A DNA stretch of 64,000 nt from contig NIVC01001081.1 of NCBI GenBank assembly GCA_002269645.1, forward strand, positions 248,001-312,000, written 5' to 3'. The notes below the pieces were generated by a model, which was not told the DNA's origin, searched no databases, and saw only the letters and a list, made by a program, of their open reading frames with translations. Position 1 is the first letter of the stretch. Every line of letters begins with the position of its first letter. This DNA is from Macrostomum lignano (lineage: Eukaryota). This document shows, piece by piece, positions 39,540 through 60,347 of the stretch. The translations under genes and the position numbers were made by a program.

Positions 39540-40950
39540 TGATCTACAGATCTAGAGGACGCATGATCTACAGATCTAGAGGACGCATGATCTAGAGATC
39601 TAGAGGAAGCATGATTTAGAGATCTAGAGGACGCATGATCTAGAGATCTAGAGGACGCATGATCTAGAGATCTAGAGGACGCATGATCTAGAGATCTAGA
39701 GGACGCATGATCTAGAGATCTAGAGGAAGCATGATTTAGAGATCTAGAGAACGCATGATCTAGAGATCTAGAGGACGCATGATCTAGAGATCTAGAGGAC
39801 GCATGATCTAGAGATCTAGAGGACGCATGATCTAGAGATCTAGAGGAAGCATGATTTAGAGATCTAGAGAACGCATGATCTAGAGATCTAGAGGACGCAT
39901 GATTTAGAGATCTAGAGAACGCATGATCTAGAGATCTAGAGGACGCATGATCTAGAGATCTAGAGAACGCATGATCTAGAGATCTAGAGGACGCATGATT
40001 TAGAGATCTAGAGAACGCATGATCTAGAGATCTAGAGGACGCATGATCTAGAGATCTAGAGAACGCATGATCTAGAGATCTAGAGGAAGCATGATCTATA
40101 GATGCATAGGAAGCATGATCTAGAGATCTAGAGGAAGCATGATTTAGAGATCTAGAGTAAGCATGATCTAGAGATCTAGAGGAAGCATGATTTAGAGATC
40201 AAGAAGAAGCATGATTTAGAGATCTAGAGGAAGCATGATCTAGAGATCTGGAGAAAGCATGATCTAGAGATCAAGAAGAAGCATGCTCTAGAGATCTAGA
40301 GGACGCATGATTTAGTTATCTAGAGGAAGCATGATCTAGAGATCAAGAGGAAGCATGATTTAGAGATCTAGAGGACGCATGATTTAGTTATCAAGAAGAA
40401 GCATGATTTAGAGATCAAGAAGAAGCATGCTCTAGAGATCTAGAGGACGCATGATCTACAGATCTAGAGGACGCATGATCTAGAGATCTAGAGGAAGCAT
40501 GATCTATAGATACATAGGAAGCATGATCTAGAGATCTAGAGGAAGCATGATCTATAGATGCATAGGAAGCATGATTTAGAGATCTAGAGGAAGCATGATC
40601 TCGAGATCTAGAGGAAGCATGATCTCGAGATCTAGAGGAAGCATGATCTCGAGATCTAGAGGAAGTATGATTTAGAGATCTAGAGGAAGCATGATTTAGA
40701 GATCAAGAAGAAGCATGATTTAGAGATCTAGAGGAAGCATGATCTAGAGATCAAGAAGAAGCATGATTTAGAGATCTAGAGGAAGCATGATCTAGAGATC
40801 AAGAAGAAGCATGATTTAGAGATCTAGAGGAAGCATGATCTAGAACTCAAGAAGAAGCATGATCTAGAGATCTAGAGGAAGTATGATCTATAGATCTAGA
40901 GGAAGCATGATCTATAGATGTATAGGAAGCATGATCTAGAGATAAAGCGA
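39540..40950 (+). repeat. 24-bp minisatellite GCATGATCTAGAGATCTAGAGGA(A/C)
   Basis: Direct reading. Confidence 0.94.
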
Positions 40951-41819
40951 TCTAGACAGAAACCTCGATACAGAGATCAAGCGATCCGGTGGTTACGCAA
41001 TAGAGAAACTTCGTCTTGATCTGGAGAAATCTAGAGATCCAGATATCTAGGAAAATGGACCTAGACGTCTGGAAGAAAATGTCATCTAGAGTTGTATATA
41101 GGAGGAAAACAGGCATCTAAAGGCCTATAGCTACCAGTGCAAGGTAAACTCGATAAACTAAGGAAATCCTAACATGCACATGGTTTTATTTGGCAAGCAG
41201 AGCAGTCGCCCCCAACTCAAATTTCAGTAAAACTCCAAGCACTGAGCTGCCTGTACCACAGGTGTGCAAGTGCCCGGCCCAGCCCGTGTGAAAGTGGAGG
41301 GTGACGCGGCTTAGCCCCGTGTAAGTAGCCCCCCCCCCGCCCGAGCTGTTGAGGAGCTTTTGCCCGGCAAGTGAAGGCAGTCAAACAGAACTATAACAGC
41401 TGTTGATTTTGGCGAAGTGTGCTCTGGGGGGTATTGTGTGCTCACGTGCAGCTTAGGGTGGATGAGGCATGAGCTGCATAAACTCAAGAAAACAGAACAG
41501 CTGTAGAGTGCTATGGGAAAACATGTGAATGGAAAATGAGAACGTGTTTTGAGAATAATGGACAGATTTCGATTTCGATACCAACAGTTGCTTTGCGATT
41601 GTGAGATCTGCTTCGCGTTTACGATTTCAGTGACACTTAAACTGTTGTCTTGCTGGGTGGAGGCTGGGGCTCTGTCTGTTTGCTCATCTATCGGGAACAA
41701 GTGAGCTCAGCACAAAATGGAGCTTGGCAATCTGAAAAGCAAAGTCTGGATTGCTCACTTTTAGAAATTCTTTGCAGCATAGAAAAAGAAGTAATTGAAG
41801 GGAGTGCTAGAAAGGAGTG

Positions 41820-44170
41820 TTCTAGATCTCTGAATCTCTAGATCATGCTGCCTTTAGATCTCTGAATCTCTAGATCATGCTTCCTTTAGATCTCTGAATC
41901 TCTAGATCATGCTTCCTATAGATCTCTAGATCATGCTTCCTTTAGATCTCTGAATCTCTAGATCATGCTTCCTTTAGATCTCTGAATCTCAAGATCATGC
42001 TTCCTTTAGATCTCTGAATCTCAAGATCATGCTTCCTTTAGATCTCTGAATCTCTAGATCATGCTGCCTTTAGATCTCTGAATCTCTAGATCATGCTTCC
42101 TTTAGATCTCTGAATCTCTAGATCATGCTTCCTATAGATCTCTAGATCATGCTTCCTTTAGATCTCTGAATCTCTAGATCATGCTTCCTTTAGATCTCTG
42201 AATCTCAAGATCATGCTTCCTTTAGATCTCTGAATCTCAAGATCATGCTTCCTTTAGATCTCTGAATCTCTAGATCATGCTGCCTTTAGATCTCTGAATC
42301 TCAAGATCATGCTGCCTTTAGATCTCTGAATCTCTAGATCATGCTGCCTTTAGATCTCTGAATCTCTAGATCATGCTTCCTTTAGATCTCTGAATCTCTA
42401 GATCATGCTGCCTTTAGATCTCTGAATCTCAAGATCATGCTGCCTTTAGATCTCTGAATCTCTAGATCATACTGCCTTTAGATCTCTGAATCTCTAGATC
42501 ATGCTGCCTTTAGATCTCTGAATCTCTAGATCATGCTGCCTTTAGATCTCTGAATCTCTAGATCATGCTGCCTTTAGATCTCTGAATCTCAAGATCATGC
42601 TGCCTTTAGATCTCTGAATCTCTAGATCATACTGCCTTTAGATCTCTGAATCTCTAGATCATGCTGCCTTTAGATCTCTGAATCTCTAGATCATGCTTCC
42701 TTTAGATCTCTGAATCTCTAGATCATGCTGCCTTTAGATCTCTGAATCTCTAGATCATGCTGCCTTTAGATCTCTGAATCTCTAGATCATGCTGCCTTTA
42801 GATCTCTGAATCTCTAGATCATGCTGCCTTTAGATCTCTGAATCTCTAGATCATGCTGCCTTTAGATCTCTGAATCTCTAGATCATGCTTCCTTTAGATC
42901 TCTGAATCTCTAGATCATGCTGCCTTTAGATCTCTGAATCTCTAGATCATGCTGCCTTTAGATCTCTGAATCTCTAGATCATGCTGCCTTTAGATCTCTG
43001 AATCTCTAGATCATGCTTCCTATAGATCTCTAGATCATGCTTCCTTTAGATCTCTGAATCTCTAGATCATGCTTCCTTTAGATCTCTGAATCTCAAGATC
43101 ATGCTTCCTTTAGATCTCTGAATCTCTAGATCATGCTGCCTTTAGATCTCTGAATCTCTAGATCATGCTTCCTATAGATCTCTAGATCATGCTTCCTATT
43201 GATCTCTAGATCATGCTTCCTCTAGATCTCTGAATCTCTAGATCATGCTGCCTTTAGATCTCTGAATCTCTAGATCATGCTTCCTATAGATCTCTAGATC
43301 ATGCTTCCTTTAGATCTCTGAATCTCTAGATCATGCTTCCTTTAGATCTCTGAATCTCAAGATCATGCTTCCTTTAGATCTCTGAATCTCTAGATCATGC
43401 TGCCTTTAGATCTCTGAATCTCAAGATCATGCTTCCTTTAGATCTCTGAATCTCAAGATCATGCTTCCTTTAGATCTCTGAATCTCTAGATCATGCTTCC
43501 TTTAGATCTCTGAATCTCTAGATCATGCTGCCTTTAGATCTCTGAATCTCAAGATCATGCTGCCTTTAGATCTCTGAATCTCTAGATCATACTGCCTTTA
43601 GATCTCTGAATCTCTAGATCATGCTGCCTTTAGATCTCTGAATCTCTAGATCATACTGCCTTTAGATCTCTGAATCTCTAGATCATGCTGCCTTTAGATC
43701 TCTGAATCTCTAGATCATGCTGCCTTTAGATCTCTGAATCTCTAGATCATACTGCCTTTAGATCTCTGAATCTCTAGATCATGCTTCCTTTAGATCTCTG
43801 AATCTCTAGATTATGCTTCCTCTAGATCTCTAAGTCTCTAGATCATGCTGCCTTTAGATCTCTGAATCTCTAGATCATGCTGCCTTTAGATCTCTGAATC
43901 TCTAGATCATGCTGCCTTTAGATCTCTGAATCTCTTAGATCATGCTGCCTTTAGATCTCTGAATCTCTAGATCATGCTGCCTTTAGATCTCTGAATCTCT
44001 AGATCATGCTGCCTTTAGATCTCTGAATCTCTAGATCATGCTTCCTTTAGATCTCTGAATCTCTAGATCATACTGCCTTTAGATCTCTGAATCTCTAGAT
44101 CATGCTTCCTTTAGATCTCTAGATCATGCTTCCTATTGATCTCTAGATCATGCTTCCTCTAGATCTCTAC
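41820..44170 (-). repeat. 32-bp minisatellite TTCCTTTAGATCTCTGAATCTCTAGATCATGC, an inverted relative of the 24-bp family
   Basis: Equals the reverse complement of the 24-mer plus an 8-nt insert; pure 24-mer units are interspersed. Confidence 0.92.
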
Positions 44171-44173
44171 ATG

Positions 44174-45138
44174 TAGAAAGGAGTGCTAGAAAGAGTGCTA
44201 GAAAAGAGTGCTAGGAAGAGTTCTAGAAAGAGTGCTAGAAAAGAGTGCTTGACAAGAGTGCTTGACAAGAGTGCTAGAAAGAGTGCTAGAAAAGAGTGCT
44301 AGAAAGAGTGCTAGAAAGAGTGCTAGAAAAGAGTGCTAGAAAGAGTGCTAGAAAAGAGTGCTAGAAAGAGTGCTAGAAAAGAGTGCTAGAAAGAGTGCTA
44401 GAAAAGAGTGCTAGAAAGAGTGCTAGAAAAGAGTGCTAGAAAGAGTGCTAGAAAAGAGTGCTTGACAAGAGTGCTAGACAAGAGTGCTAGACAAGAGTGC
44501 TAGACAAGAGTGCTAGACAAGAGTGCTAGAGTGCTAGAAAAGAGTGCTTGACAAGAGTGCTTGACAAGACTGCTAGAAAGAGTGCTAGAAAAGAGTGCTA
44601 GAAAGAGTGCTAGAAAGAGTGCTAGGAAGAGTTCTAGAAAGAGTGCTAGAAAAGAGTGCTTGACAAGAGTGCTTGACAAGAGTGCTAGAAAGAGTGCTAG
44701 AAAAGACTGCTAGAAAGAGTGCTAGAAAGAGTGCTAGAAAAGAGTGCTAGAAAGAGTGCTAGAAAAGAGTGCTAGAAAGAGTGCCAGAAAAGAGTGCTAG
44801 AAAGAGTGCTAGAAAAGAGTGCTAGAAAGAGTGCTAGAAAAGAGTGCTAGAAAGAGTGCTAGAAAAGAGTGCTAGAAAGAGTGCTAGAAAAGAGTGCTTG
44901 ACAAGAGTGCTTGACAAGAGTGCTAGACAAGAGTGCTAGACAAGAGTGCTAGACAAGAGTGCTAGACAAGAGTGCTAGACAAGAGTGCTAGATAAGAGTG
45001 CTAGACAAGAGTGCTAGACAAGAGTGCTAGACAAGAGTGCTAGACAAGAGTGCTAGACAAGAGTGCTAGACAAGAGTGCTAGACAAGAGTGCTAGACAAG
45101 AGTGCTAGAGTGCTAGAAAGAGTGCTAGAAAGAGTGCC
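44174..45138 (+). repeat. 12/13-bp satellite AGAGTGCTAGAA(A) / AGAGTGCTAGACA
   Basis: Direct reading. Confidence 0.93.
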
Positions 45139-45713
45139 ATGCTGGAGTGGGTGCCGCAGGTACCTCAACAGTATTTCAGAGCAGCAGCAGACCAGGTGAA
45201 TATTAGGCTCTGCATAAATTTCAAGCCGATCGACAGGCCGTAATTCTCCCCATTAAGCGACTATAATTGAGCGAGTGTTTTATTGAAGTGTTCTCGGCGT
45301 TCTGAGTCACTCGGCTGCCTCAGCCACTTAACTCTCACTTAGAACTGTCAATCAAAAGTTTGGAGTTAATTGGCAAAATTGAATGAGTGCTGAGGGCCCC
45401 CGCGTGGCGCTCTGATTTCTGTACTCGGCAATTCCGTAAAAAGGAATTAATTCATCTCAAAAGTGGATTTAATCTCTCTCAAATATGGCAAATTAATTTG
45501 GACCCAGTTGATTATTTTTCTGCCAGGGTTCAAAGCAATCACAGATATTGGGCACTCGCATTCTAATTGCTCGGATAAATTTAATTTAGATAATTACAGC
45601 CAGGGGTTAGCGCACGTTGGGGAGCAAAGAAATAACAGAATTACCCGTGTTCTCTACTGCCAAGTAGAGTAGTTGGAGCGTTTAGCTTATCATATAAATC
45701 TGTCATAATAAAG

Positions 45714-46000
45714 GATTGTCACTGTTGGATTGTCACTGCTGTTGGATTGTCACTGTTGGATTGTCACTGATGGATTGTCACTGTTGGATTGTTGCTGTTG
45801 GATTGTCACTGTTGGATTGTCACTGTTGGATTGTCACTGTTGGATTGTCACTGTTGGATTGTCACTGTTGGATTGTCACTTTTGGATTGTCACAGAAGTA
45901 TTGTTGCTGTTGGATTGTCACTGTTGTATTGTCACTGTTGGATTGTCACTGCTGTTGGATTGTCACTGTTGGATTGTCACTGTTGGATTGTCACTGTTGA
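45714..46000 (+). repeat. 14-bp satellite GGATTGTCACTGTT, left of the retrotransposon
   Basis: Direct reading. Confidence 0.93.
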
Positions 46001-46001
46001 G

Positions 46002-46874
46002 TGTAGTGCATGCGCCCTTGTCAGTTGGCAGGGCGCGTTGCACTTTGGGGCTGGTTGGGGGGGGGGGTTGGCGGGCGTGGCAGGGTCTGGCCCCGGCCGG
46101 GCTTTGCGCGTGCCCCTCCCCAGCCGTGCCCCTGCCCCGTGCTCAGGGCTGGTTGGCTGCGGCCGGGCCAGCTTTGGCGCGGGTGCAGCCCCTCCCCCCT
46201 TAGGCGGGGTTTTGATTGGCTGGGCCGGCGTGGTTTGTTTTGGTGAGCTTAGCCGGTGGGGCCGTCTGCCCCAGGGTTTGGGTGCTATTTATGGTGCGAC
46301 TCTGGCTCTTGCCCGCCTCCTGCGTGCTTTTTGTGTTTTGGTGTGCTCCGAGAGTGCAAGCGCGAGACCTGATAAAAGAAACAGCAACATTAGCTACTTG
46401 GATAAAAGAAACACAATAGCCTAATTGAGAAGAGTCTTGGAGAATTAAGAAGAAGTCGGAAACTGCGCTTGAGACCTGCGAATAATAAACGGTGAACAGT
46501 CATCTGGCCACTGGTAAGCCGCCTGCTGTTTGAGTCCTTTCTTTCCGGGAAGCTTGCTAGGCCGAATTCTTGCCAGAGCGTCATAACGCCGGGAGACCAT
46601 ATAGCTTCTGTAGTACGGTACCGTTTACCATATATATTGCGTACGCCTTACGGTATAGAGAATAGAAGCACTCGAGAGTGTCACCACACCTCAAGCCGCA
46701 GCGTGAACTCTGAGTGTCACAACACCAGAGGGATCGAATTATTATCGCAGAGCGTCGCCACGCCTGCTCGTCGTATTCATAAAAGTACAGACAGAGCGTC
46801 ACAACGCCTGTTATTTCACATATAATATATATTGTACTCGGGACTGGGCACCCAAGCCGACCCGGGTTACAACA
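46002..46874 (+). repeat. 5' LTR
   Basis: TGTAGT..ACAACA; matches 54918-55790 except around G/C homopolymers. GC box at 46202-46209, inverted CCAAT at 46215-46219, AATAAA at 46484-46489. Confidence 0.96.
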
Positions 46875-46877
46875 AAT

Positions 46878-46895
46878 TGGCGCCCGAACAGGGAC
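46878..46895 (+). promoter_or_regulatory. Primer binding site, tRNA-Lys(UUU)
   Basis: TGGCGCCCGAACAGGGAC is the 18-nt complement of the tRNA-Lys3 3' end (same as the HIV-1 PBS), 3 nt after the LTR. Confidence 0.95.
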
Positions 46896-47119
46896 CCTGT
46901 CCCCAAAGATTGAAAGTCGGCTCAGTTGATTTCTATGAAAATTGCTGTCATATTGTGAGCGTTTTTTCTTATTAAAACGACTGTTGCTTATCGCTTGCGG
47001 CTATTGCCCTACCGCAAAAGACATTGATCACGGTGACAGACAACTGATTGGTTATCAGAGATCGATAGCTATCACCACCTCAGAGTAAAGAGTAGCAACG
47101 GTATTCAGTGACTTCGGCC

Positions 47120-48040
47120 ATGGGTGATCAAGCTATGGACCAACTGATCGATGCGCTGGCTGCGCGCCTCAGAGCCAACGCCGACCGAGCAGCGCCACGA
47201 CTCTCGAAGCCGCCCAAGTACATACCAACGATGAATTTCAGCCTATGGCTGCAGAGTTTCAACGAGTACTGCGAGGCTGTCGGTATAGAAGAAGAAGCCA
47301 GGCGGCCGCACCTGATCGGCCTACTCGACCTCACAACAGCCTACGCTGCCGTTGATAAGCTGGACTTGGCAGACGACATCGAGTACGGGGAATTCACGGA
47401 TGCACTACTGGCGCGGTTCACCATGAACAGAACAGCCCAGGACTACCGTTTTGAATTATCGAATCGAGATCAGCTAGACAAGGAGTCTGTGGAGACCTAC
47501 GGGGACGAGCTGCTGGAGTTGGTGCGCAATGCCTTCCCCACCGCGGATGCCGACACCAGGACAGAGCTGGCGAAAGACAGATTTCTAAAAGGCGTTCGAG
47601 TAACCGACACTGTCCGAGAAAGACTGTACCTGCAGCAGCCGGCCAACCTCACCGATGCCATTCGAACAGTAAGACAACTTGAAGCAGCCCAGAAGGCGTC
47701 TTCGACCCAGTCCAAAGCCAGACCCAGGGCTGGGCTGAATGCCTTTGCCACCGAAACGTCGACAGGTGACACCGGCAAAGACGAGGAGCTACGCCAACTG
47801 CGTCAAAAAGTAAAGGAAATGGAAGAAAAGATCCGACGGATGGAGCAGATGCAGCAGGGCCAGCAGGAGCCGCCCGAACCCGGCCTTCAAGACAAGCAAC
47901 AATCCAAGCAGGCGGCTCCGTCCAGCTCGAAGCAGCGTAGCGGTGTCAAGTGCTACAACTGCGGGGAGATAGGCCATCTCTCATTCCAGTGCCCAAAGCC
48001 GGGAAAAGGCAAGAGGGGCCCACCAGCTGGAGGCAAGTGA
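47120..48040 (+). CDS. gag: Gag (capsid plus CCHC zinc knuckle), 306 aa
   Basis: gccATGg start; gypsy-type capsid motifs (ESVETYGDEL, DRFLKG) and the knuckle CYNCGEIGHLSFQC. Confidence 0.92.
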   Translation: MGDQAMDQLIDALAARLRANADRAAPRLSKPPKYIPTMNFSLWLQSFNEYCEAVGIEEEARRPHLIGLLDLTTAYAAVDKLDLADDIEYGEFTDALLARFTMNRTAQDYRFELSNRDQLDKESVETYGDELLELVRNAFPTADADTRTELAKDRFLKGVRVTDTVRERLYLQQPANLTDAIRTVRQLEAAQKASSTQSKARPRAGLNAFATETSTGDTGKDEELRQLRQKVKEMEEKIRRMEQMQQGQQEPPEPGLQDKQQSKQAAPSSSKQRSGVKCYNCGEIGHLSFQCPKPGKGKRGPPAGGK

Positions 48041-51000
48041 GCCCCTGCAATTCGTCAGCCTCCGAACAAGCCGTCATCTCATCTCATCATCATCAAACGC
48101 CCGGTACCGCATCTCATCAGCCTCCAGTGTCCGGTACTGCGCCTCATCAGAATCCAGTGTCCGGTACTGCGTCTCATCAGCCTCCAGTGTCCGGTACAGT
48201 ACCTCATCAGCATCCAGTGTCCGGTACTGCGGCTCATCAGCATCCAGTGTCCGGTACTGCGCCTCATCAGCATCCAGTGTCCGGTACAGCGTCTCATCAG
48301 CCTCCAGTGTCCGGTACTGCGTCTCATCAGCATCCAGTGTTCGGTACAGTACCTCATCAGCATCCAGTGTCCGGTACTGCGTCTCATCAGCCTCCAGTGT
48401 CCGGTACAGTACCTCATCAGCATCCAGTGTCCGGTACTGCGGCTCATCAGCATCCAGTGTCCGGTACTGCGCCTCATCAGCATCCAGTGTCCGGTACAGC
48501 GTCTCATCAGCCTCCAGTGTCCGGTACTGCGTCTCATCAGCATCCAGTGTTCGGTACAGTACCTCATCAGCATCCAGTGTCCGGTACTGCGTCTCATCAG
48601 CCTCCAGTGTCCGGTACAGTATCTCATCAGCATCCAGTGTCCGGTACTGCGTCTCATCAGCATCCAGTGTCCGGTACTGCGCCTCATCAGCATCCAGTGT
48701 CCGGTACTGCGTCTCATCAGCCTCTAGTGTCCGGTACTGCGTCTCATCAGCCTCCAGTGTCCGGTACTGCGTCTCATCAGCATCCAGTGTCCGGTACAGT
48801 GCCTCATCAGCCTCCAGCGTCCGGTACTGCACCTCACCATCAACTAGCCGGTTTTGCACAGTCGCAGCGCCCAATCACCGTCAACGCACCTCAGTCAATT
48901 CAAATCAATCCTGCGTCGATATATGTTACGGCCTCAATCGCAGGGCGGAGGGTGAACGCGCTAGTGGACTCGGGAGCTTCCTGCACCATTATCTCACGGG
49001 AAGCTTACCAAAGTATGCCGAAACAGAGCGTCAGAGATTTGGCCGGTGCTGAAGGCTACGTTAGCTTAGCAAACGGCAGCCCGATCGAAATCGAGAGAAC
49101 AGTCCTGTTGCGACTGTCAATCGCTGATAAAGTAATAGATACTCCAGCCTTGGTAGTCAGCGGAGTGAAGTACCAACTGGTATTGGGATCCGACTTCTGC
49201 AGGGACAACAGTTGCGTCATCGACTACAAGACAGCTGTCTTTTCAGTGCAGGACACTGCAATCCCGTTCCGATGGCAAGCTGAGCGCCCGATCGTTTGCA
49301 GAATTTTGGCGACAAGGTCCAGCACAATACCGCCAGGTCATCAAGCAGTTCTGTCAGCAAGGCTGGAGAGCAAAGGACGACGGAACAGAGGGTGTGTCGG
49401 CCTAACTGAGAATCTCGGGGCGAACGATTTGGCAGCTGGCCGCTGGCTTGCTAAGGCCTTAGTGATCCCAAATAGCGGCAGCCGTCTGCCGACTCGACTC
49501 ATCAATATCACGGAGGAGCCAGTCAGAATTCGCCAAGGTTGTACGCTCGGGTGGTTCTGCCCCCTAGAATCCACCGAACCGTTGAACACCATCAAGCTCT
49601 TAGCCGTAGAGTCAGGAGACGATCCACAGGAAGAGCCGAAGGTCCAAGGCAGCAACAGCCCTTCGGAAGCAGACTTGCTACCAAACTCGTACGGCGACTG
49701 TGGACTGTCGACGAAAGAAGACGAAGAATTTAGAATCCTTGTCCGGAGTTACAGCGATGTGTTCACGACCAAGCAGACTTCAAGCAAGTTAACTACCGTG
49801 GTGGAGCATGAAATTAACACCGAGAATGCGCGCCCAATCAAGATCCCACCGCGTCGTCTGCCTCCCCACTTACAGCCAGAAGTAGATCGTCAAGTCAACG
49901 AGTTGCTGGAAAAGGGGCAGATCGAAGAAGCACAGTCACCATGGTGCTTTCCTTTGGTGTGTGTAAAGAAGAAATCAGGGGAAATGAGGATGTGCGTCGA
50001 TTATCGGAAGTTGAATGAGGTCACCGTCAAGGATGCAGTGCCGATGCCGAGGGTCGATGATGCGCTGGAGGCAGTACACGGCGCCAAGATCTTCTCGACA
50101 ATGGACCTTCACAGCGGGTTTTGGCAAGTAGGGGTGAGACCTCAGGATCAGGACAAGACGGCGTTTGCAGTGCCGCATCGCGGACAATTTCGATGGAAGG
50201 TTATGCCGTTCGGCTTAGTGAACAGCCCAGCAACATTCACCAGGTTGATGGCAGCCGTTCTGGACAAGCAGATGTGGAAAACCTGTCTCGTCTACATCGA
50301 CGATCTACTGGTTTGGTCAACCGACGTGGATGAACACCTGAGAAGACTGGAGGAAATATTCAGCAAGTTGCGGCAAGCAAATTTGTGCCTGAAGCCCCAG
50401 AAGTGTCACTTTTTGCAAAAGCAAGTGAAATTTCTCGGTCACACGCTGTCGGCTGCTGGCATCAGTACCGATGAGGAGAAAGTTCAAGAAGTGAAGAACT
50501 GGCCAACACCGCGATCCTCGACGGAGCTGCATTCATTCTTGGGCCTGTGTGGCTATTACAGAAAGTTTATTAAAGATTTCGCCGCAATAGCAGCGCCTCT
50601 AACTCGATTGACAACAAAAGACGCAAAGTTTGAATGGAAAACGGAACAGCAGCTGGCGTTCGAAACATTGAAGGAACGAATGACAAGTTCAGAGGTTATG
50701 GCTCATCCGGATTTCTCCCCGGATGCCGGAGAGTTTATCCTCGATACTGATGGCAGTTCGAAGATGGGCATAGGAGCGGTACTTTCTCAAGTCCAGCCAG
50801 ATGGAGCAGAACGAGTGATCGCCTATGGGTCCAAGACACTAAATCAAGCCGAACGCAACTATTGTACGACTCGTTTAGAACTACTAGCGGTTGTGACTTT
50901 CATCATGAAGTTCAGATACTATCTGCTTGGAAAAGCGTTCTGTCTGCGAACGGACCACAGCAGCCTGCAATGGTTAAAAAACTTCAGTGACGCCGAGGGA

Positions 51001-52737
51001 CAGGTTGCTCGCTGGTTGGAGAAGTTGGCTCCATTTCAGTACCGCATCGTTCACAGACCAGGTCGATCGCATGGCAACGCGGACGCAATGTCGAGGAAGC
51101 CAGTACGGAGACATTTCGGAGCGGAGACATGCCCGGCATGTGCGCAGCATCCAGAAGGACTAAATGCAGTCGAATTTGAACGATTCTCAGCCGGCAATCT
51201 GGCAAGCGAGCAGGATCAAGACGACGATTTGAGAACAGTAAAGGAAGCGCTTGGCTCAAACCCAGTTCCAGATAAAAGCGAGACAGCTTGGAGTCCACTG
51301 GCTAGAGCCGTCTGGACTCGAAAAGACGACCTGGTGCTGCAAGAGAACGTGCTCCTTGTGAGAAACAAAGACAGGCGCGATGAGTATCAAATGGTGCTGC
51401 CACGAAAGGCATTGGATCGTATCTTGAAAACCCTACACGAGGGAGTGGGAGGTGGCCACATGGGCTTTGCGAAGACAAAATTTAAAGTGCTTCAGCGCTA
51501 CTGGCGTCCAGGATTGTCTCGTGCCATTGAAGAATATATTCGCGGTTGTGCCACCTGCTGCAAGTCAAAGCCGGGCAAGCGAAACCGAGCACCCCTGCAA
51601 CCGTTGACATTCGCAGCACCATTCGATTGCGTCATGATGGACATTGTCGGGCCGCTACCGCGGAGTAAGGCTGGAAACATTTATCTCCTGACAGTCCAAG
51701 ATTCGTTTACGAAGTGGCCTGACGCGTACCCGCTTCGCAACCAGAAGGCAAGGACGGTGGCAAGGGCGCTTTTCAATCGATGGATTAGCCAGCATGGATG
51801 TCCGAGTACTTTGCACAGTGACCAAGGAAGGAACTTCGAATCGCAAGTGATGCGCGAAATGTGCAGGATACTCGAGATCCGCAAGTCCAGAACCACAGCT
51901 TATCATCCGAGCGGAAATGGACAAGTAGAAAACTTCAATAAAAGTTTAAAATCCATCCTCAAGTGCTGCCTAGAGGACTCAGGACGAAACGACTGGGAAG
52001 AATTCGTCAGCTCTGCGTTAATGGCGTACCGATCAAGCGTGCATCGAGCAACGGGTTATACTCCCCACTACATGGTCTATGGCACGGAGATGCGCCTACC
52101 GATAGACTTGACTGACCAGCCGCCACAGCCTGTCGATTCGCATGTAAATTTCGTCAAGGAGCTAGAAGACAAATTGCAGACAGCTCATCGCGCTGCTCGA
52201 CAGCAGTTGAATACTTATCAGCGGCGACAGAAGGACCAGTACGATAAAAGAACCCGAGGATCCGATATTCAGGAGGGTGACCATGTCTTCGTCTACAGCC
52301 CCGCCCTGAAACCAGACGAAGCCGCAAAGTTTCACGTAAGCTGGCTCGGCCCAGTGAAGGTGCTCGAAAGAAGATCCGAGGTGCTCTTCAAAGTGGAAAA
52401 CCCGTCAAATCGTAAAAAGTCGAAGTTCGTCCACTTCAACAACCTCCGGAAGTTCGCTCGACCGGCCGCCCTGGAAACACCAGTTAGGACCGCGGCACCG
52501 CCGGAGGTGGTCGACGAGACGGACTCGGAGACAGAGGCGGAATGCGAGACTTGGACTCGGCCTCAACTGATGCCGCCACAGGACGCCGAGGAAGTCGCCG
52601 AGGTGCTGGAAGAGCAGATGGAGTTGGTTGACGACCCGCAGCCTACTCATAACCCGGTGGAAGCTGCACCTGAGCCTCGAAGGTCCGGAAGGTTGCGACG
52701 GCCGCCGGATCGCTACGGCCAGCCAGTGACATTCTAA
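47950..52737 (+). CDS. pol: Pol (repeat linker, protease, RT, RNase H, integrase), expressed as Gag-Pol
   Basis: LVDSGAS (PR, Asp at 48967), YIDD (RT, 50293), LDTDGS..YCTTRLELLAVV (RH), HEGVGGGHMG..CATC, MDIVGP, HSDQGRNFES and QVENFN (IN), C-terminal RRSGRLRRPPDRY. Confidence 0.96.
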   Translation: MLQLRGDRPSLIPVPKAGKRQEGPTSWRQVSPCNSSASEQAVISSHHHQTPGTASHQPPVSGTAPHQNPVSGTASHQPPVSGTVPHQHPVSGTAAHQHPVSGTAPHQHPVSGTASHQPPVSGTASHQHPVFGTVPHQHPVSGTASHQPPVSGTVPHQHPVSGTAAHQHPVSGTAPHQHPVSGTASHQPPVSGTASHQHPVFGTVPHQHPVSGTASHQPPVSGTVSHQHPVSGTASHQHPVSGTAPHQHPVSGTASHQPLVSGTASHQPPVSGTASHQHPVSGTVPHQPPASGTAPHHQLAGFAQSQRPITVNAPQSIQINPASIYVTASIAGRRVNALVDSGASCTIISREAYQSMPKQSVRDLAGAEGYVSLANGSPIEIERTVLLRLSIADKVIDTPALVVSGVKYQLVLGSDFCRDNSCVIDYKTAVFSVQDTAIPFRWQAERPIVCRILATRSSTIPPGHQAVLSARLESKGRRNRGCVGLTENLGANDLAAGRWLAKALVIPNSGSRLPTRLINITEEPVRIRQGCTLGWFCPLESTEPLNTIKLLAVESGDDPQEEPKVQGSNSPSEADLLPNSYGDCGLSTKEDEEFRILVRSYSDVFTTKQTSSKLTTVVEHEINTENARPIKIPPRRLPPHLQPEVDRQVNELLEKGQIEEAQSPWCFPLVCVKKKSGEMRMCVDYRKLNEVTVKDAVPMPRVDDALEAVHGAKIFSTMDLHSGFWQVGVRPQDQDKTAFAVPHRGQFRWKVMPFGLVNSPATFTRLMAAVLDKQMWKTCLVYIDDLLVWSTDVDEHLRRLEEIFSKLRQANLCLKPQKCHFLQKQVKFLGHTLSAAGISTDEEKVQEVKNWPTPRSSTELHSFLGLCGYYRKFIKDFAAIAAPLTRLTTKDAKFEWKTEQQLAFETLKERMTSSEVMAHPDFSPDAGEFILDTDGSSKMGIGAVLSQVQPDGAERVIAYGSKTLNQAERNYCTTRLELLAVVTFIMKFRYYLLGKAFCLRTDHSSLQWLKNFSDAEGQVARWLEKLAPFQYRIVHRPGRSHGNADAMSRKPVRRHFGAETCPACAQHPEGLNAVEFERFSAGNLASEQDQDDDLRTVKEALGSNPVPDKSETAWSPLARAVWTRKDDLVLQENVLLVRNKDRRDEYQMVLPRKALDRILKTLHEGVGGGHMGFAKTKFKVLQRYWRPGLSRAIEEYIRGCATCCKSKPGKRNRAPLQPLTFAAPFDCVMMDIVGPLPRSKAGNIYLLTVQDSFTKWPDAYPLRNQKARTVARALFNRWISQHGCPSTLHSDQGRNFESQVMREMCRILEIRKSRTTAYHPSGNGQVENFNKSLKSILKCCLEDSGRNDWEEFVSSALMAYRSSVHRATGYTPHYMVYGTEMRLPIDLTDQPPQPVDSHVNFVKELEDKLQTAHRAARQQLNTYQRRQKDQYDKRTRGSDIQEGDHVFVYSPALKPDEAAKFHVSWLGPVKVLERRSEVLFKVENPSNRKKSKFVHFNNLRKFARPAALETPVRTAAPPEVVDETDSETEAECETWTRPQLMPPQDAEEVAEVLEEQMELVDDPQPTHNPVEAAPEPRRSGRLRRPPDRYGQPVTF
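48001..48046 (+). promoter_or_regulatory. Programmed -1 ribosomal frameshift signal
   Basis: G GGA AAA heptamer in gag phase, 6-nt spacer, stem AGGGGC-C-CAC / GTG-A-GCCCCT; pol is in the -1 frame. Confidence 0.7.
48101..48840 (+). repeat. 30-bp in-frame minisatellite (25 x 10 aa, xPVSGTxxHQ) in the pol frame
   Basis: Counted directly in the translated ORF; includes a 7-unit higher-order duplication. Confidence 0.95.
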
Positions 52738-53160
52738 TGGGTTACTCGTCATCGTGAAGTCTCATCAGTTTCATATGCGATTATCGTTAAAAGCCAGAAA
52801 AATATTTCGCGAATGCGTCATTCATCATAAATACGAGTACTTCATCAATGCACCATTCATCATGAGTACGAGCAGTTCGCCAATGCGTCATTCAAGAAAT
52901 TCGTTAATGCGTCATTAAGTCATTTTAATCGCATCTTCATCGAAGTTTTGACGAGAATCAAATTTTGCCTACAAAATCTATGCATCGGTGGAGGGTATTC
53001 GGACTGGCATCCGGTGACAACTCGAATTTGCGCTGGGACTTTACGATGCAGGGTACCGCGGGCCACGGTCCGAGGAGATGACGCTCTGGCAAGAGGGGAG
53101 CAGGAGTAGAATCTGGAGTCAGGGACAGTGTGTCGCAGGTTTGAGTACGTTGCTTTGCAG

Positions 53161-54195
53161 ATGGATTTGTACGCTGTCCTCCAAGTCGGACACACAGCAG
53201 AACGTGCCGAGATCAGGCGAGTCTATCGACAGCTAGCGCTCTTCTGGCACCCGGACAAGCACCCGGACAAGGAACTCGCAGGACGCCGTTTCCAAGAAAT
53301 TGAGACTGCTGGTAGAATTCTATCGTGTCCATATCGCCGAGCGATGTACGACCAGTTGGGCGATAAATCAATCCCGTATGACGAGGCTGTAACCTTCGCA
53401 ATGACGTTCATACCTCCTACTAGTGTAAGAATGCCGGCGGACATCGAAGAGGGAGTACAGCAAAGGCGAGAAGTTGAAGAAGCTCAGCGCAAGGAAGCTG
53501 GTCTCAGGCAGGGGAGACAGGGACAGAGGAACGATTACGAAGCGGATGGCTACATTCTAATCTCGGACGACGATGAGAGCGAGGAGTCGGATGAGTGTAG
53601 CATCGACACAGAAGAAGAAGACGAGTTGCTGGCATCGGATGGCTCCTCCGGAAGTAGTGAGTCAGAAGCTATGGAGATCGATGTACCGGAAAGCAAGGAG
53701 GTTGTCTCACATCGCGCGTCGGGAGCAATATGGGATGATGAAAAGCTGTCGTTATCGGCAGCTGCGCGTCAGCTCCGCCATCGTTTGATGAAGCATATTT
53801 TGGCTGGACAGTCGGACGGAATCGTGTCAGTGCTCACGGCTATGAGACGGCTGTTTCGAGACTCGCAGCGAGAACCGAGGAGCGCACTGTCAATGGTCCT
53901 GCTGCAGGCGTTGTTCTTCATCCGCAGAGATATCGCTCCGGTAAAGCGTCAGAGAGCAGGCCGCCGTTACTGGTCTAGGCAGAGTTTTGATTGTTTCGTC
54001 CGACAGCTCTGTCACGAGCTCATCCCGCTGTTCGGTTTGCGCCGGCCCGGCAGGCTGCTCGAGGTCCTGAAAAGCTGCGTCGGTCTCCCTGGACTTCGGG
54101 TTCGCTGGGTGCCCAGTTCCGATTCATACTGTATTTTCTGCTTACTTGTATGTATGTTGTTACGCTCGTACTGTATGGGTTTATTTGCATGCTAG
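53161..54195 (+). CDS. Retrotransposon ORF3: N-terminal J domain (DnaJ/Hsp40-type) protein, 344 aa
   Basis: DLYAVLQV..AEIRRVYRQLALFWHPDKHPD..RRFQEIETAGRILSCPYRRAMYDQLG aligns to the J-domain consensus with an intact HPD (53248-53256). An acidic tract and a basic/helical C-terminal half follow. It lies between pol and the PPT. The ORF track starts at GTG 53128; the first ATG is 53161. Confidence 0.88.
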   Translation: MDLYAVLQVGHTAERAEIRRVYRQLALFWHPDKHPDKELAGRRFQEIETAGRILSCPYRRAMYDQLGDKSIPYDEAVTFAMTFIPPTSVRMPADIEEGVQQRREVEEAQRKEAGLRQGRQGQRNDYEADGYILISDDDESEESDECSIDTEEEDELLASDGSSGSSESEAMEIDVPESKEVVSHRASGAIWDDEKLSLSAAARQLRHRLMKHILAGQSDGIVSVLTAMRRLFRDSQREPRSALSMVLLQALFFIRRDIAPVKRQRAGRRYWSRQSFDCFVRQLCHELIPLFGLRRPGRLLEVLKSCVGLPGLRVRWVPSSDSYCIFCLLVCMLLRSYCMGLFAC

Positions 54196-54232
54196 TGGGG
54201 TCAAGCTTCCTGGGGGAATGGCTCAGCAGCTG

Positions 54233-54660
54233 TGCGGCGGCCACGTGCGCTTCCTGCCGGCTTCTGCGGCGGCCACGCGCGCTTCCTGCCGGCTTCTGCG
54301 GCGGCCACGTGCGCTTCCTGCCGGCTTCTGCGGCGGCCACGTGCGCTTCCTGCCGGCTTCTGCGGCGGCCACGTGCGCTTCCCGCCCGGCCATCTGCGCG
54401 CCTCGCCCGGCCGCCTTCGCGTCTTGCCGGCCACCTGCGTGCCCTGTCGGCCATCTGCGCGTCCTGTCGGCAACCTGCGTGCCCTGTCGGCCATCTGCGC
54501 GTCCTGTCGGCAACCTGCGCTTCCTGCCCGGCCATCTGCGCGTCCTGTCGGCAACCTGCGCTTCCCGCCCGGCCATCTGCGCTTCCTGCCGGCCACCTGC
54601 GTGTCCTGTCGGCAACTTGCGCGTCCCGCCCGGCCATCTGCTCGTCCTGCCGGCCGCCTG
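54233..54660 (+). repeat. GC-rich internal tandem repeats (five 32-bp units, then ~40-bp units) in the element's 3' non-coding region
   Basis: gcggcggccacgtgcgcttcctgccggcttct at 32-bp spacing, followed by cggccatctgcgcgtcctgtcggcaacctgcg.. units. Confidence 0.85.
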
Positions 54661-54905
54661 CGATGGTTTTCTGTGCCGCCAGCTTTGAAAGCCTATTCCG
54701 TGCCCCGTGGTTGCTCCTGACGAACTCGCGTGCAGAATACTAGTACCTTTTTCATATTTCTCTTGCGGCAACCTTTTTTTTTGCTTTTCCCTGTTGCATT
54801 AGTTTGTTCCCAATTTTTTTGTTGTTTTTGATTTTTTTTGCTTTGTTATTTAAAAAAATTGGAATCCCAGTCGCCGTGGTTCGAGCTCCGCCCTGTTTTT
54901 TTTGT

Positions 54906-54917
54906 AGGAGGGGAGGG
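54906..54917 (+). promoter_or_regulatory. Polypurine tract
   Basis: AGGAGGGGAGGG directly abuts the 3' LTR and is preceded by a T-rich tract. Confidence 0.9.
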
Positions 54918-55790
54918 TGTAGTGCATGCGCCCTTGTCAGTTGGCAGGGCGCGTTGCACTTTGGGGCTGGTTGGGGGGGGGGGGTGGGCGGGCGTGGCAG
55001 GGTCTGGCCCCGGCCGGGCTTTGCGCGTGCCCCTCCCCAGCCGTGCCCCTGCCCCGTGCTCAGGGCTGGTTGGCTGCGGCCGGGCCAGCTTTGGCGCGGG
55101 TGCAGCCCCTCCCCCTTAGGCGGGGTTTTGATTGGCTGGGCCGGCGTGGTTTGTTTTGGTGAGCTTAGCCGGTGGGGCCGTCTGCCCCAGGGTTTGGGTG
55201 CTATTTATGGTGCGACTCTGGCTCTTGCCCGCCTCCTGCGTGCTTTTTGTGTTTTGGTGTGCTCCGAGAGTGCAAGCGCGAGACCTGATAAAAGAAACAG
55301 CAACATTAGCTACTTGGATAAAAGAAACACAATAGCCTAATTGAGAAGAGTCTTGGAGAATTAAGAAGAAGTCGGAAACTGCGCTTGAGACCTGCGAATA
55401 ATAAACGGTGAACAGTCATCTGGCCACTGGTAAGCCGCCTGCTGTTTGAGTCCTTTCTTTCCGGGAAGCTTGCTAGGCCGAATTCTTGCCAGAGCGTCAT
55501 AACGCCGGGAGACCATATAGCTTCTGTAGTACGGTACCGTTTACCATATATATTGCGTACGCCTTACGGTATAGAGAATAGAAGCACTCGAGAGTGTCAC
55601 CACACCTCAAGCCGCAGCGTGAACTCTGAGTGTCACAACACCAGAGGGATCGAATTATTATCGCAGAGCGTCGCCACGCCTGCTCGTCGTATTCATAAAA
55701 GTACAGACAGAGCGTCACAACGCCTGTTATTTCACATATAATATATATTGTACTCGGGACTGGGCACCCAAGCCGACCCGGGTTACAACA
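54918..55790 (+). repeat. 3' LTR
   Basis: Direct repeat of 46002-46874. Confidence 0.96.
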
Positions 55791-57136
55791 GATTGTTGCT
55801 GTTGGATTGTCACTGCTGTTGGATTGTCACTGTTGGATTGTTGCTGTTGGATTGTCACTGTTGGATTGTCACTGTTGGATTGTCACTGTTGGATTGTCAC
55901 TGATGGATTGTCACTGTTGGATTGTTGCTGTTGGATTGTCACTGTTGGATTGTCACTGTTAGATTGTCACTGTTGGATTGTCACTGTTGGATTGTCACTG
56001 TTGGATTGTCACTGTTGGATTGTCACTGTTGGATTGTCACTGTTGGATTGTCACTGTTGGATTGTCACTGCTGTTGGATTGTCACTGTTGGGTTGTCACT
56101 GTTGGATTGTTGCTGTTGGATTGTCACTGCTGTTGGATTGTCACTGTTGGATTGTTGCTGTTGGATTGTCCCTGTTGGATTGTCACTGTTGGATTGTCGC
56201 TGTTGGATTGTCACTGTTGGATTGTCACTGTTGGATTGTTGCTGTTGGATTGTCACTGTTGGATTGACACTGTTGTATTGTCACTGTTGGATTGTCACTG
56301 TTGGATTGTCACTGTTGGATTGTTGCTGTTGGATTGTCACTGTTGGATTGACACTGTTGTATTGTCACTGTTGGATTGTCACTGTTGGGTTGTCACTGTT
56401 GGATTGTTGCTGTTGGATTGTCACTGTTGGCTTGTCACTGATGGATTGTCACAGAAGGATTGTTGCTGTTGGATTGTCACTGTTGTATTGTCACTGTTGG
56501 ATTGTCACTGCTGTTGGATTGTCACTGTTGGATTGTTGCTGTTGGATTGTCACTGTTGTATTGTCACTGTTGGATTGTTGCTGTTGGATTGTCACTGCTG
56601 TTGGATTGTCACTGTTGGATTGTTGCTGTTGGATTGTCACTGTTGGATTGTCACTGTTGGATTGTTGCTGTTGGATTGTCACTGTTGGATTGTCACTGTT
56701 GGATTGTCACTGTTGGCTTGTCACTGTTGGCTTGTCACTGATGGATTGTCACTGATGGATTTTTGCTGTTGGATTGTTGCTGTTGGATTGTCACTGCTGT
56801 TGGATTGTCACTGTTAGATTGTCACTGTTGGATTGTCACTGATGGATTGTCACTGCTGGATTGTCACTGTTGGATTGTCACTGTTGGATTGTCACTGATG
56901 GATTGTCACTGCTGGATTGTCACTGTTGGATTGTCACTGTTGGATTGTCATTGTTGGCTTGTCACTGTTGGATTGTCACTTGATGGATTGTCACTGTTGG
57001 ATTGTCACTGATGGCTTGTCACTGTTAGATTGTCACTGTTGGCTTGTCACAGTTGGATTGTCACTGATGGCTTGTCACTGATGGCTTGTCACTGTTGGAT
57101 TGTCACTGATGGCTTGTCACTGATGGCTTGTCACTG
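55791..57136 (+). repeat. 14-bp satellite GGATTGTCACTGTT, right of the retrotransposon
   Basis: Same unit and orientation as 45714-46000. Confidence 0.94.
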
Positions 57137-57784
57137 CGGTCAATACAGCTGAGCTAAATGTTTATTTTGGCTTTATTTTGCTTCAATCAGCTACTGCTGG
57201 CTGTGGTCCTGCATGAAGCAGCATAATATTCCTCGAGTCGGAACATTACTGAGCGAGCCGTGCCATGCCGATGTTCGGTGTATAAACATTCGCATGCATT
57301 GAAGGCGAATTCAAGTGCAGCGTGCACTGCAGTCTGCTGGGATGCATTTGTGCCTCCGCAGATCAGCGTATTATAGCAATATTTTGTCAGCCCCCAAGCC
57401 CGTGCGGACGAAAAAGGCAATTAATTTGATTTTCTGTTTCCAGTTGCAGAAATCCGAACCGAGGCGGCCCTGCATTTGCGGGGGCGCCGGCCTCCACCTT
57501 GTGCAGTGGCTTTGCTTTCCCTTATTTTGTTTGCGCGGCATTGGCGGCGTGCGGGCGAAATCTGAAGACGACCGCGAGTTGAAGGGATAAGTGTGACAGG
57601 AGCGAATGGGATCTGGTAATGGGATATGTTTAACGATTGGTCAGAACAATTAGAGTTTCACAAAACTTTCTTGGCAGAGGGAGTGCAAAGTTGCAACGAT
57701 TTTGCAAATGTACTTTCCTCTTGTGTGTAAATGCAACATCTTGATTTTTTGTTGCTTTTGTTGTTTAAATGATTGGCGATGCGT

Positions 57785-58075
57785 GTCTAACAGTTGCTGA
57801 ATGTCGTGTCTAACAGTTGCTGAATGTCGTGTCTAACAGCTGCTGAATGTCGTGTCTAACAGTTGTTTAATGTCGTGTCTAACAGTTGCTTAATGTCGTG
57901 TCTAACAGTTGCTTTAATGTCGTGTCTAACAGTTGCTTAATGTCGTGTCTAACAGTTGCTTAATGTCGTGTCTAACAGTTGCTTAATGTCGTGTCTAACA
58001 GTTGCTTAATGTCGTGTCTAACAGTTGCTTTAATGTCGTGTCTAACAGAGGATCATGGCTGTGTCTAACAGGTGA
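57785..58075 (+). repeat. ~23-bp minisatellite TGTCGTGTCTAACAGTTGCTTAA
   Basis: Direct reading. Confidence 0.9.
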
Positions 58076-58555
58076 TGATTTTGGTGTCTCAAAAACAGGG
58101 TACTGCTTATGCCGAACAGGAAATGTGGGTGTCGCGTTCTGAAAGAGACGGTTGTGGCAGCCGACAGCCTTACAGCTCAGCTGCCTGCACCAACAGGTTT
58201 GACAGTTCGAGAAAACCGACTTCACCCAACTTCCACAGAGAGTATCCAGGCTGACTCGTGAGTACAAAATGGAGTTTTCTTGTTTTCTTTGAGTAAATAG
58301 GAGGCCCTATTGTAGCACGCTGAGCTTGAGCAGTCAATGCTGGTCTTGAGCACACTTATCCACTCCAGGATGCGGAGTGACAGTTGAGCAGAGTCAACAA
58401 TTGCAATGTTTACCACATTTGCAGTTCCCAATACCGAAACAGTTAAAGATTAACCGGTATCTACCTGGCGTAACGACTAGACTAGCAATCCATCCTATTC
58501 TTGATCTATCATTCTTCTTATTCTTCCTATTTCTTCCTTTCTTCCTAGAGTTCAT

Positions 58556-60061
58556 CTCCCCATCCACCGCAGAACTGCACTCCGCCATAGACAATGAAGC
58601 CAGCTAGTTGGAGACTCCCCATCCGCCACAGAACTGCACTCGGCCATAGACAATGAAGCCAGCTAGTTGGAGACTCCCCATCCGCCACAGAACTGCACTC
58701 GGCCATAGACAATGAAGCCAGCTAGTTGGAGACTCCCCATCCGCCACAGAACTGCACTCGGCCATAGACAATGAAGCCAGCCAGTTGGAGACTCCCCATC
58801 CGCCACAGAACTGCACTCGGCCATAGACAATGAAGCCAGCTAGTTGGAGACTCCCCATCCGCCACAGAACTGCACTCGGCCATGGACAATGAAGCCAGTC
58901 AGTTGGAGACTCCCCATCCGCCACAGAACTGCACTCGGCCATAGACAATGAAGCCAGTCAGTTGGAGACTCCCCATCCGTCACAGAACTGCACTCGGCCA
59001 TAGACAATGAAGCCAGTCAGTTGGAGACTCCCCATCCGCCACAGAACTGCACTCGGCCATAGACAATGAAGCCAGCTAGTTGGAGACTCCCCATCCGCCA
59101 CAGAACTGCACTCGGCCATAGACAATGAAATCAGCCAGTTGGAGACTCCCCATCCGCCACAGAACTGCACTCGGCCATAGACAATGAAGCCAGTCAGTTG
59201 GAGACTCCCCATCCGTCACAGAACTGCACTCGGCCATAGACAATGAAGCCAGTCAGTTGGAGACTCCCCATCCGCCACAGAACTGCACTCGGCCATAGAC
59301 AATGAAGCCAGCTAGTTGGAGACTCCCCATCCGCCACAGAACTGCACTCGGCCATAGACAATGAAATCAGCCAGTTGGAGACTCCCCATCCGCCACAGAA
59401 CTGCACTCGGCCATAGACAATGAAGCCAGCCAGTTGGAGACTCCCCATCCGCCACAGAACTGCACTCGGCCATGGACAATGAAGCCAGTCAGTTGGAGAC
59501 TCCCCATCCGCCACAGAACTGCACTCGGCCATAGACAATGAAGCCAGTCAGTTGGAGACTCCCCATCCGTCACAGAACTGCACTCGGCCATAGACAATGA
59601 AGCCAGTCAGTTGGAGACTCCCCATCCGCCACAGAACTGCACTCGGCCATAGACAATGAAGCCAGTCAGTTGGAGACTCCCCATCCGCCACAGAACTGCA
59701 CTCGGCCATAGACAATGAAATCAGCCAGTTGGAGACTCCCCATCCGCCACAGAACTGCACTCGGCCATAGACAATGAAGCCAGTCAGTTGGAGACTCCCC
59801 ATCCGCCACAGAACTGCACTCGGCCATAGACAATGAAGCCAGCTAGTTGGAGACTCCCCATCCGCCACAGAACTGCACTCGGCCATAGACAATGAAATCA
59901 GCCAGTTGGAGACTCCCCATCCGCCACAGAACTGCACTCGGCCATAGACAATGAAATCAGCCAGTTGGAGACTCCTCATCCGCCACAGAACTGCACTCGG
60001 CCATAGACAATGAAGCCAGCCAGTTGGAGACTCCCCATCCGTCACAGAACTGCACTCGGCC
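58556..60061 (+). repeat. 59-bp minisatellite GGCCATAGACAATGAAGCCAGCTAGTTGGAGACTCCCCATCCGCCACAGAACTGCACTC
   Basis: About 25 near-identical head-to-tail units with no unique spacers. Confidence 0.95.
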
Positions 60062-60347
60062 AAGTTTCGACGTATGTTTCTGAACTGAATTAATGCGAGT
60101 GCAGGCTATAAGTACATTTGATTCTGTCTTGCCACTGCCTTCAACGATTGCAGGGAAAGAGGATCGATATTTATTGCCTTACAAGAAGTGTCAATAAGGC
60201 TGGGAAGTTATGGCTGATTTTTTGGCCTCCAAACCGCACCCCTCCAGTCACCGGAATTTCGATCTATATTGATTTATATTCATGCCTGTGCATGCACTTT
60301 TAGCATTTGAATGAGTCCTTAGGATATTTTTCTAAGTCTTTAGAATG

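Follow-up and report, generated by a model that had tools for sequence, protein, structure and literature searches.

The flatworm Macrostomum lignano carries a Ty3/gypsy LTR retrotransposon in which a third open reading frame (ORF3), placed after pol, encodes a J-domain protein, and comparison of sequences identifies ORF3 as a selected, long-resident accessory gene that has been kept across families of related elements. The explanation we favour, at a probability of roughly 0.45, is that the gene yields, by splicing, a nuclear J protein which would direct Hsc70 to silencing complexes marked by SUMO or lying in heterochromatin. More tentatively, the protein might be regarded as a self-encoded, modular ‘chromatin disassembly adaptor’, which would use swappable SIM- or HP1-like modules to bring Hsc70 to complexes marked by SUMO or by H3K9 methylation, a chaperone-based form of anti-silencing.

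The window (the whole stretch of 64 000 nt that was analysed, with all features below given on its forward strand) contains a full-length Ty3/gypsy (Metaviridae) element at 46002–55790. The 5′ LTR (46002–46874, TG...CA) and 3′ LTR (54918–55790) are 99.66% identical over 873 nt, with one mismatch and two gaps, and the element is a young copy. A primer-binding site (PBS) of the tRNA-Lys type (46878–46895), an 18-mer that also appears in papers on tRNA-Lys3-primed retroviruses, is followed by gag (47120–48040) with a CCHC zinc knuckle (PF00098, E 7.6e-8; PF03732 fell below its cut-off). The pol frame (47941–52737) opens in the −1 frame relative to gag, with the heptamer G GGA AAA (48001–48007) in the overlap as a candidate site of −1 frameshifting, and holds a 10-aa repeat tract, a protease motif, RT, RNase H and integrase, a gypsy-type order in which the last three were assigned by Pfam and the protease motif by eye. 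Amongst the clades considered (Mag, CsRN1, Gmr1/Osvaldo and Mdg3), we take the lysine PBS to suggest an Osvaldo-type element. ORF3 (53161–54195) lies after the pol stop at 52737 and before the polypurine tract (54906–54917), inside the LTR pair, so that the intact 344-aa frame of the preliminary description was found where it had been placed; GC-rich tandem arrays of 32-nt and 20-nt units occupy the 3′ untranslated region (54233–54662). The genome contains 147 occurrences of the LTR start motif, and a 4-bp target-site duplication was present in nine of ten other copies checked; the window copy, inserted within a 14-bp satellite, has none. Hairpins in the LTR had been proposed to form a regulatory module together with ORF3: several do fold in the U5 part (46590–46874) beyond what shuffling gives (z −3.0 against 200 shuffles), but nothing ties U5 to ORF3. 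No heat-shock elements were found in the LTR at 0–1 mismatch, which leaves no link to the heat-induced families described in PMC12801592. Within pol, 25 copies of a 30-nt unit run in frame at its start (48082–48830) and encode a 10-aa repeat, rich in His and Pro, that separates Gag from the protease, and the stretch between protease and RT (about 49290–49580) recalls a degenerate dUTPase-like domain, of which Pfam reported none.

By predicted fold and by its HPD motif ORF3 is a J-domain protein, with stimulation of the Hsp70 ATPase as a putative activity. Residues 2–64 match the Pfam DnaJ profile (PF00226, E 6.4e-18; score 65 bits, family cut-off 27.8), the only family returned at E 0.1, and the J domain (53161–53358, HPD at residues 30–32, pLDDT 93–96) is predicted to adopt the four-helix fold, superposing on solved J domains at about 1.0–1.3 Å, as the first reading of this region had anticipated. 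It is followed by conserved helices with a proline invariant in alignments (P92; 53359–53460, pLDDT 89–95), by an acidic linker predicted to be disordered (53461–53745, 31 D/E in 95 aa, pLDDT <50 at residues 121–196) and by a basic C-terminal domain (hereafter C-domain; 53731–54105, 24 K/R against 7 D/E) modelled as five helices (pLDDT 83, pTM 0.75) and belonging to no known family, in which an Arg-rich loop (53926–53973) is a candidate nuclear signal or nucleic-acid contact. Neither a G/F region, a zinc finger nor PF01556 was found in ORF3, PF00226 being the only DnaJ family in the Pfam runs, and inspection of the sequence and predicted model of a shorter, 315-aa form gave no signal peptide, furin site or transmembrane anchor. 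ORF3 is neither a class A/B DnaJ nor an Env glycoprotein, and domain search and inspection here agree with what had been read by eye. The length of 344 aa, taken initially as the extent of the gene, does not hold: amongst 22 full-length, near-identical copies, 13 stop at residue 315 and only four, the window copy included, at 344, whilst three continue into the 3′ repeats and two stop early. Since most copies, and the 54%-identical homologue P0015, end at the 315 position, we regard the hydrophobic 29-residue tail as a minority variant, and the homologous part comprises residues 1–315 (to 54105). A 12-nt doubling that gives HPDKHPDK is indeed present (53247–53271), but it has no special meaning, since HPDK-H/Y-P-D/N also occurs in families 35% identical, once (L044) without nucleotide doubling, and is thus an old loop variant rather than a fresh duplication. 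GC3 is 0.58 in ORF3, 0.575 in pol and 0.79 in the one host gene measured, in keeping with the earlier impression that codon usage lies nearer to pol.

From the presence of an acceptor at its ATG we infer that ORF3, like env genes, is expressed through splicing to a subgenomic message. A pyrimidine-rich, 3′ splice-acceptor-like site identified in a YAG scan (53150–53160) ends right before the ATG, and YAG immediately precedes the ATG in five of nine loci (families A, B and D, three of the seven families described below; chance 0.023 per position); it is one base off in family E and lies within 20 nt in the remaining loci, which is weak given a chance of 0.35. The only donor-like site in a scan of the leader (46301–47300), G/GTAAG at 46513–46518, is the candidate donor for this message. 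RNA contigs from four runs cross the acceptor with neither joint nor loose end, over a stretch that lacked the candidate donor and in contigs that drop minor forms. Splicing is typical of the ORF3 genes in LTR elements (PMC5408684).

A search of the genome with ORF3 gave at least 118 matches (117 of 275 candidates scored), merged to 95 loci, and one with the integrase at least 112 (111 of 4983 candidates scored), merged to 110 loci. An integrase match amongst those listed lay 0–2.5 kb upstream on the same strand at 67 of the 95 ORF3 loci, and at 40 of the 64 with less than 50% identity, confirming the linkage of ORF3 to gypsy pol in other copies. In six of the 28 unlinked loci the match is confined to the J domain, and these resemble host genes (L035 was checked); several others proved to be members of element families when fetched. 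Reading of representatives gave at least seven families in which an architecture of J domain, linker and C-domain follows the integrase, their integrases being 50–58% identical to that of the window. Families A (the window), B, C and E consist of J domain, acidic linker and C-domain; family D adds a chromodomain in the linker, family G a TatD-like tail, and family F, with a TatD-like tail, lacks both the acidic linker and the HPD of its J domain. The HPD is thus kept in six of seven families, and the Arg-rich loop in families A, B, C, D and G and in five public homologues. In an integrase tree (17 rows, no outgroup) two lineages in which no ORF3 was detected are nested in the clade, next to F and C, and a third, next to D, has a LINE interrupting it, a pattern which suggests one gain of ORF3 and several losses within the clade. 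The nested lineages without ORF3, and family F (at least eight integrase matches at 53–54%), which has neither HPD nor the linker motif described below, indicate that ORF3 is dispensable. In the sister lineage of F (L040, L051, L079 and L080) a different sequence stands between pol and LTR, and in that of family D (L042:413–2062 and L052) a LINE-like endonuclease frame just after the integrase is preceded by an EKNPGP stretch which we take to be 2A-like.

In public databases the ORF3 protein is found in automatic, chimeric gene models only, and many M. lignano ‘J domain-containing proteins’ are element copies, which calls for caution in annotation. The C-domain profile, run against 1.84 billion representatives, returned nine proteins: two of M. 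lignano, six with the same or a partial architecture and one repeat-protein false match; the domain was found in no host-type gene. A public homologue of family A is 54% identical and one of family D 88% in the J domain and 74% in the chromodomain, whilst a protein nearly identical to the window pol plus ORF3 is labelled Macrostomum lignano, as are two others of the clade. A single-sequence protein search with ORF3 gave J-domain matches only, a search of longer proteins gave one match, and a scan of JGI metagenomes with P0012, aimed at linkage to pol outside this genome, gave none. At L038 (G000:C575:335814–335987) and four other places a J domain lies in open frames as long as 1449 aa, two of them on one contig in opposite orientation and with no pol in 4.2 kb, which may be a host gene or another mobile element. 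A C-domain without J domain or pol in the 2.1 kb upstream occurs at two places in the genome (L109:2146–2754).

Constraint on ORF3 was assessed by pairwise Nei–Gojobori dN/dS on open pieces. Between A and a second lineage, A2, the ratio is 0.08 in the J domain (residues 1–86, CI 0.03–0.15), 0.13 in the linker and 0.23 in the C-domain (CI 0.14–0.37); it is 0.23 for B1 versus B2 (CI 0.12–0.39), 0.07 and 0.18 for B1 versus B3 with dS near saturation, and 0.48 for the J domains of A and B1, dS being saturated between F and G. Young pairs lack clear constraint (one synonymous versus seven non-synonymous changes between C1 and C2, five versus seven amongst family A variants, and 0.93 in the TatD part of G1 versus G2), as is expected after insertion. 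Long residence, proposed initially from codon usage, is borne out by the many families and by ratios far below 1 between older pairs; instead of the single copy, neutral decay or recent capture named beforehand as counter-evidence, there are many copies, constraint between those pairs, and no near-identical host donor amongst the 22 host J loci fetched. The integrases of A and A2 are 95% identical (dS 0.14), and nucleotide identity is 92% up to 52918, whereas their ORF3 genes are only 69% identical in nucleotides (dS 1.1–2.3); being close in integrase and far apart in ORF3, the two point to an exchange of the ORF3 cassette, a swap that would resemble those of genes under host conflict.

The best matches of the J domain are DNAJB2/B6/B8 and proteins that combine a J domain with DnaJ-X, a likeness that ends at about residue 72, ORF3 differing from them in having no G/F region, zinc finger or PF01556. 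In a tree of J domains (47 rows, five near-duplicates dropped) all but one of the 15 J domains from ORF3 fall together (92/62) and monophyly is not rejected (p-AU 0.17); the phylogeny called for in the preliminary description hence supports the grouping but does not single out a donor. DnaJ-X (PF14308) was considered for the C-domain following an Atlas lead (0.78), the presence of PF14308 in nine of 30 profile matches and the grouping of the family E J domain with J plus DnaJ-X proteins at 90/87. It was rejected: the PF14308-bearing matches align through the J domain only, PF14308 was found in none of eight C-domains and nowhere in the genome, hhalign gave 0.04%, and the Atlas lead did not recur amongst the matches listed for a second member. 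When folds were searched with the C-domain, no match rose above background (best VIA Z 8.8 over 47 residues). Structure prediction of the C-terminal part gave a confident five-helix bundle but matched no family; the model resembles nothing known, and a new fold is not thereby proven.

The linker cannot be aligned across families. The pattern [VI]x[VI][DEST]4 nonetheless occurs in ten of 15 linkers against 0.41 expected from shuffles, for a loose pattern written after the sequences had been seen and for linkers that are related to one another; a narrower form of this pattern occurs in seven of 15 (0.26 expected) and a stricter pattern in three of 15 (0.86 expected). The loose pattern was absent from 11 integrase tails, where expectation is low (0.02), and from 28 public J proteins (0.47 expected), and was present in all three J-bearing loci fetched later, one of which is 94% like a locus already counted. 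The five linkers without it are those of the two chromodomain proteins (2/2), the HPD-less family F, a fragment, and family C, in which a matching stretch lies just before the linker boundary used. In the window copy the SUMO-interacting-motif-like stretch (residues 131–139, 53551–53577) resembles SLS-4 of ICP0 and is of the type of the tested ICP0 motif IVISDS (PMC3174244). A SIM is described as a hydrophobic core, hXhh or hhXh, with an acidic flank (PMC8616421), which the ORF3 motif fits loosely, its core in the window having three aliphatic residues rather than four. LxCxE was found in one of 15 linkers against 0.32 expected, which is chance level.

The chromodomain of family D (PF00385, E 1.4e-12) has Swi6 and HP1 proteins as its closest solved relatives and, at the positions that we take to be the aromatic cage, keeps Tyr and Trp, the third aromatic being replaced by Val or Leu. 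The TatD domain of families F and G (PF01026, 31.5 bits, cut-off 27) matches TatD structures and keeps the GE motif; the His and the E..D motif, presumably metal ligands, are replaced, so that these tails look degenerate and have likely lost metal binding residues. Such a TatD-like pseudo-nuclease is fused to ORF3 at L046:96–1658, L049:113–766, L108 and L110, and one G copy (L041) has the TatD part only.

Taken together, these added modules suggest a site of action in the nucleus, at silenced chromatin, and a function there can be sketched as follows. ORF3, acquired once and long ago by a flatworm Ty3/gypsy clade, would be translated from an env-like spliced subgenomic message; the protein would enter the nucleus by way of its basic C-domain, and its exchangeable linker module, a SUMO-binding motif or an HP1-like chromodomain, would dock on silenced chromatin. 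The J domain would switch on Hsc70 of the host there, SUMO-marked silencing complexes would be taken apart, and the element would then be transcribed. SUMO recruits SetDB1 in fly piRNA silencing (10.1101/533091). The logic would be that of T antigen, in which a J domain is joined to a client hook, turned here on the target which ICP0 attacks with a ‘RING plus SIM’. Several points count against the proposal: SUMO-dependent silencing is known from flies and mammals, from which a role in flatworms is extrapolated; the C-domain has no known relative, so that any role given to it is a guess; family F thrives with neither HPD nor motif, and two nested lineages show no ORF3; the loose SIM pattern was fitted to related sequences already seen, and the stricter one is rare; and the chromodomain of family D lacks the third cage aromatic.

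The J domain might instead serve the element's own proteins, with the C-domain binding Gag or Pol and Hsc70 folding RT or building and opening the particle. Viruses do use Hsp70 for their own proteins, as hepadnaviral RT exemplifies, and both the conserved HPD and the J domain as the most constrained part agree with a private co-chaperone of this kind, which we nevertheless judge unlikely: amongst the four uses put forward initially, the SIM-like motif, the HP1-like chromodomain and the basic loop favour a nuclear or silencing use over Gag–Pol folding or RT activation, the first two being left unexplained by it; a pol-specific chaperone should resist an exchange of ORF3 such as took place while the integrase stayed 95% identical; and lineages without ORF3 exist. 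The same chromodomain or SIM could tether the pre-integration complex to heterochromatin or nuclear bodies, with Hsc70 stripping off capsid or integrase. Chromodomains steer integration in chromoviruses and the window copy sits in a satellite, but chromoviral chromodomains are fused to the integrase and that of family D lies in a separate ORF, and the 12 nt read at ten other insertion flanks reveal no shared target sequence; we consider such a guide or unpacker improbable.

We are equally sceptical of a Rev- or CERV-like RNA factor, in which the Arg-rich C-domain would bind element RNA and Hsc70 would remodel the RNP so that unspliced RNA is exported; although the basic C-domain with its conserved Arg loop, an acceptor at the ATG that implies both spliced and unspliced RNA, the structured U5 and the precedent of CERV in Cer1 (PMC10309623) all agree with it, no RNA-binding fold was matched and the chromodomain would be superfluous. 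Finally, passive capture of a host gene that simply travels with the element would account for the decay of young copies without visible constraint and for the two of 22 full copies that stop early, but is largely refuted, and in our view has scarcely any probability, given an open frame and architecture kept across 25–35% identity, dN/dS of 0.07–0.23 between older pairs and a C-domain seen in no host-type gene.

The proposed J protein aimed at silencing complexes has partial counterparts in known systems. The client hook of polyomavirus T antigen is LxCxE. ORF3 is like T antigen, whose binding of Hsc70 depends on the aspartate of the HPD (PMC11720896), in that an N-terminal J domain is encoded by the element or virus itself, and unlike this DNA-virus protein in that no C-terminal domain is shared and LxCxE stands at chance level in its linkers. 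With ICP0 it shares an effector domain combined with an IVISDS-type motif beside acidic and serine residues, used by ICP0 against SUMO-based repression (PMC3174244); SUMO binding by ORF3 is putative, and where ICP0 destroys its targets through ubiquitin (RING), the effector of ORF3 is a J domain. In bdelloid rotifers, Ty3/gypsy elements carry a non-env ORF3 encoding a GDSL esterase or DEDDy exonuclease (PMC5408684), likewise a captured cellular domain between pol and 3′ LTR that is expected to be spliced and is gained and lost by family; an Hsp70 co-chaperone cargo with exchangeable modules sets the present ORF3 apart, and DnaJ and TatD are absent from that article's text as available. CERV of Caenorhabditis elegans Cer1 is also an accessory protein of an animal Ty3/gypsy element, nuclear and made from a spliced message (PMC10309623), a likeness by description only: that account, in the part available, names no J domain, and export was shown for CERV and not for ORF3. 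Arabidopsis SILENZIO, of the MBD5/6 complex, is a J protein on transposon chromatin (PMC10651127), as is proposed for ORF3, yet it is host-encoded and pro-silencing where ORF3 is encoded by the element.

What seems new here is the capture of a J domain by an LTR retrotransposon; accessory ORF3s and virus-captured J domains were already known. No prior description of a J-domain gene in LTR retrotransposons was found in the papers searched, with Repbase, Dfam and GyDB outside the scope. The available text of a paper on M. lignano LTR elements (PMC12801592) mentions neither DnaJ, TatD nor ORFs, and its supplementary expression tables contain DnaJ 13 times, the first places all being transcript annotations; a term search for DnaJ in the available text of PMC6338049 and PMC13524379 gave nothing. 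Animal transposons are known to encode few proteins that counter silencing, and ORF3 is small, modular and present in active young copies, with natural variants that have the SIM-like motif or a chromodomain, or are without HPD or without ORF3, in a flatworm host that is transgenic and RNAi-ready. The system lets one test whether an element turns host Hsp70 against SUMO- and heterochromatin-based silencing; if so, an animal transposon would possess an Hsp70-based equivalent of the SUMO-targeted ligases of viruses. Should the mechanism differ, J-domain capture, seen before in DNA viruses and RNA viruses, would still come to include LTR retrotransposons, and ORF3 also brings an unclassified five-helix domain.

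Elsewhere in the window, dense minisatellites with units of 13, 14, 23, 24, 25, 32 and 59 nt flank the element (40000–46000 and 55791–60200). An intronless FAD-binding gene of 511 aa (PF01565, GC3 0.79) lies at 2241–3776 and, by eye, is presumably like the sterol reductase DHCR24.
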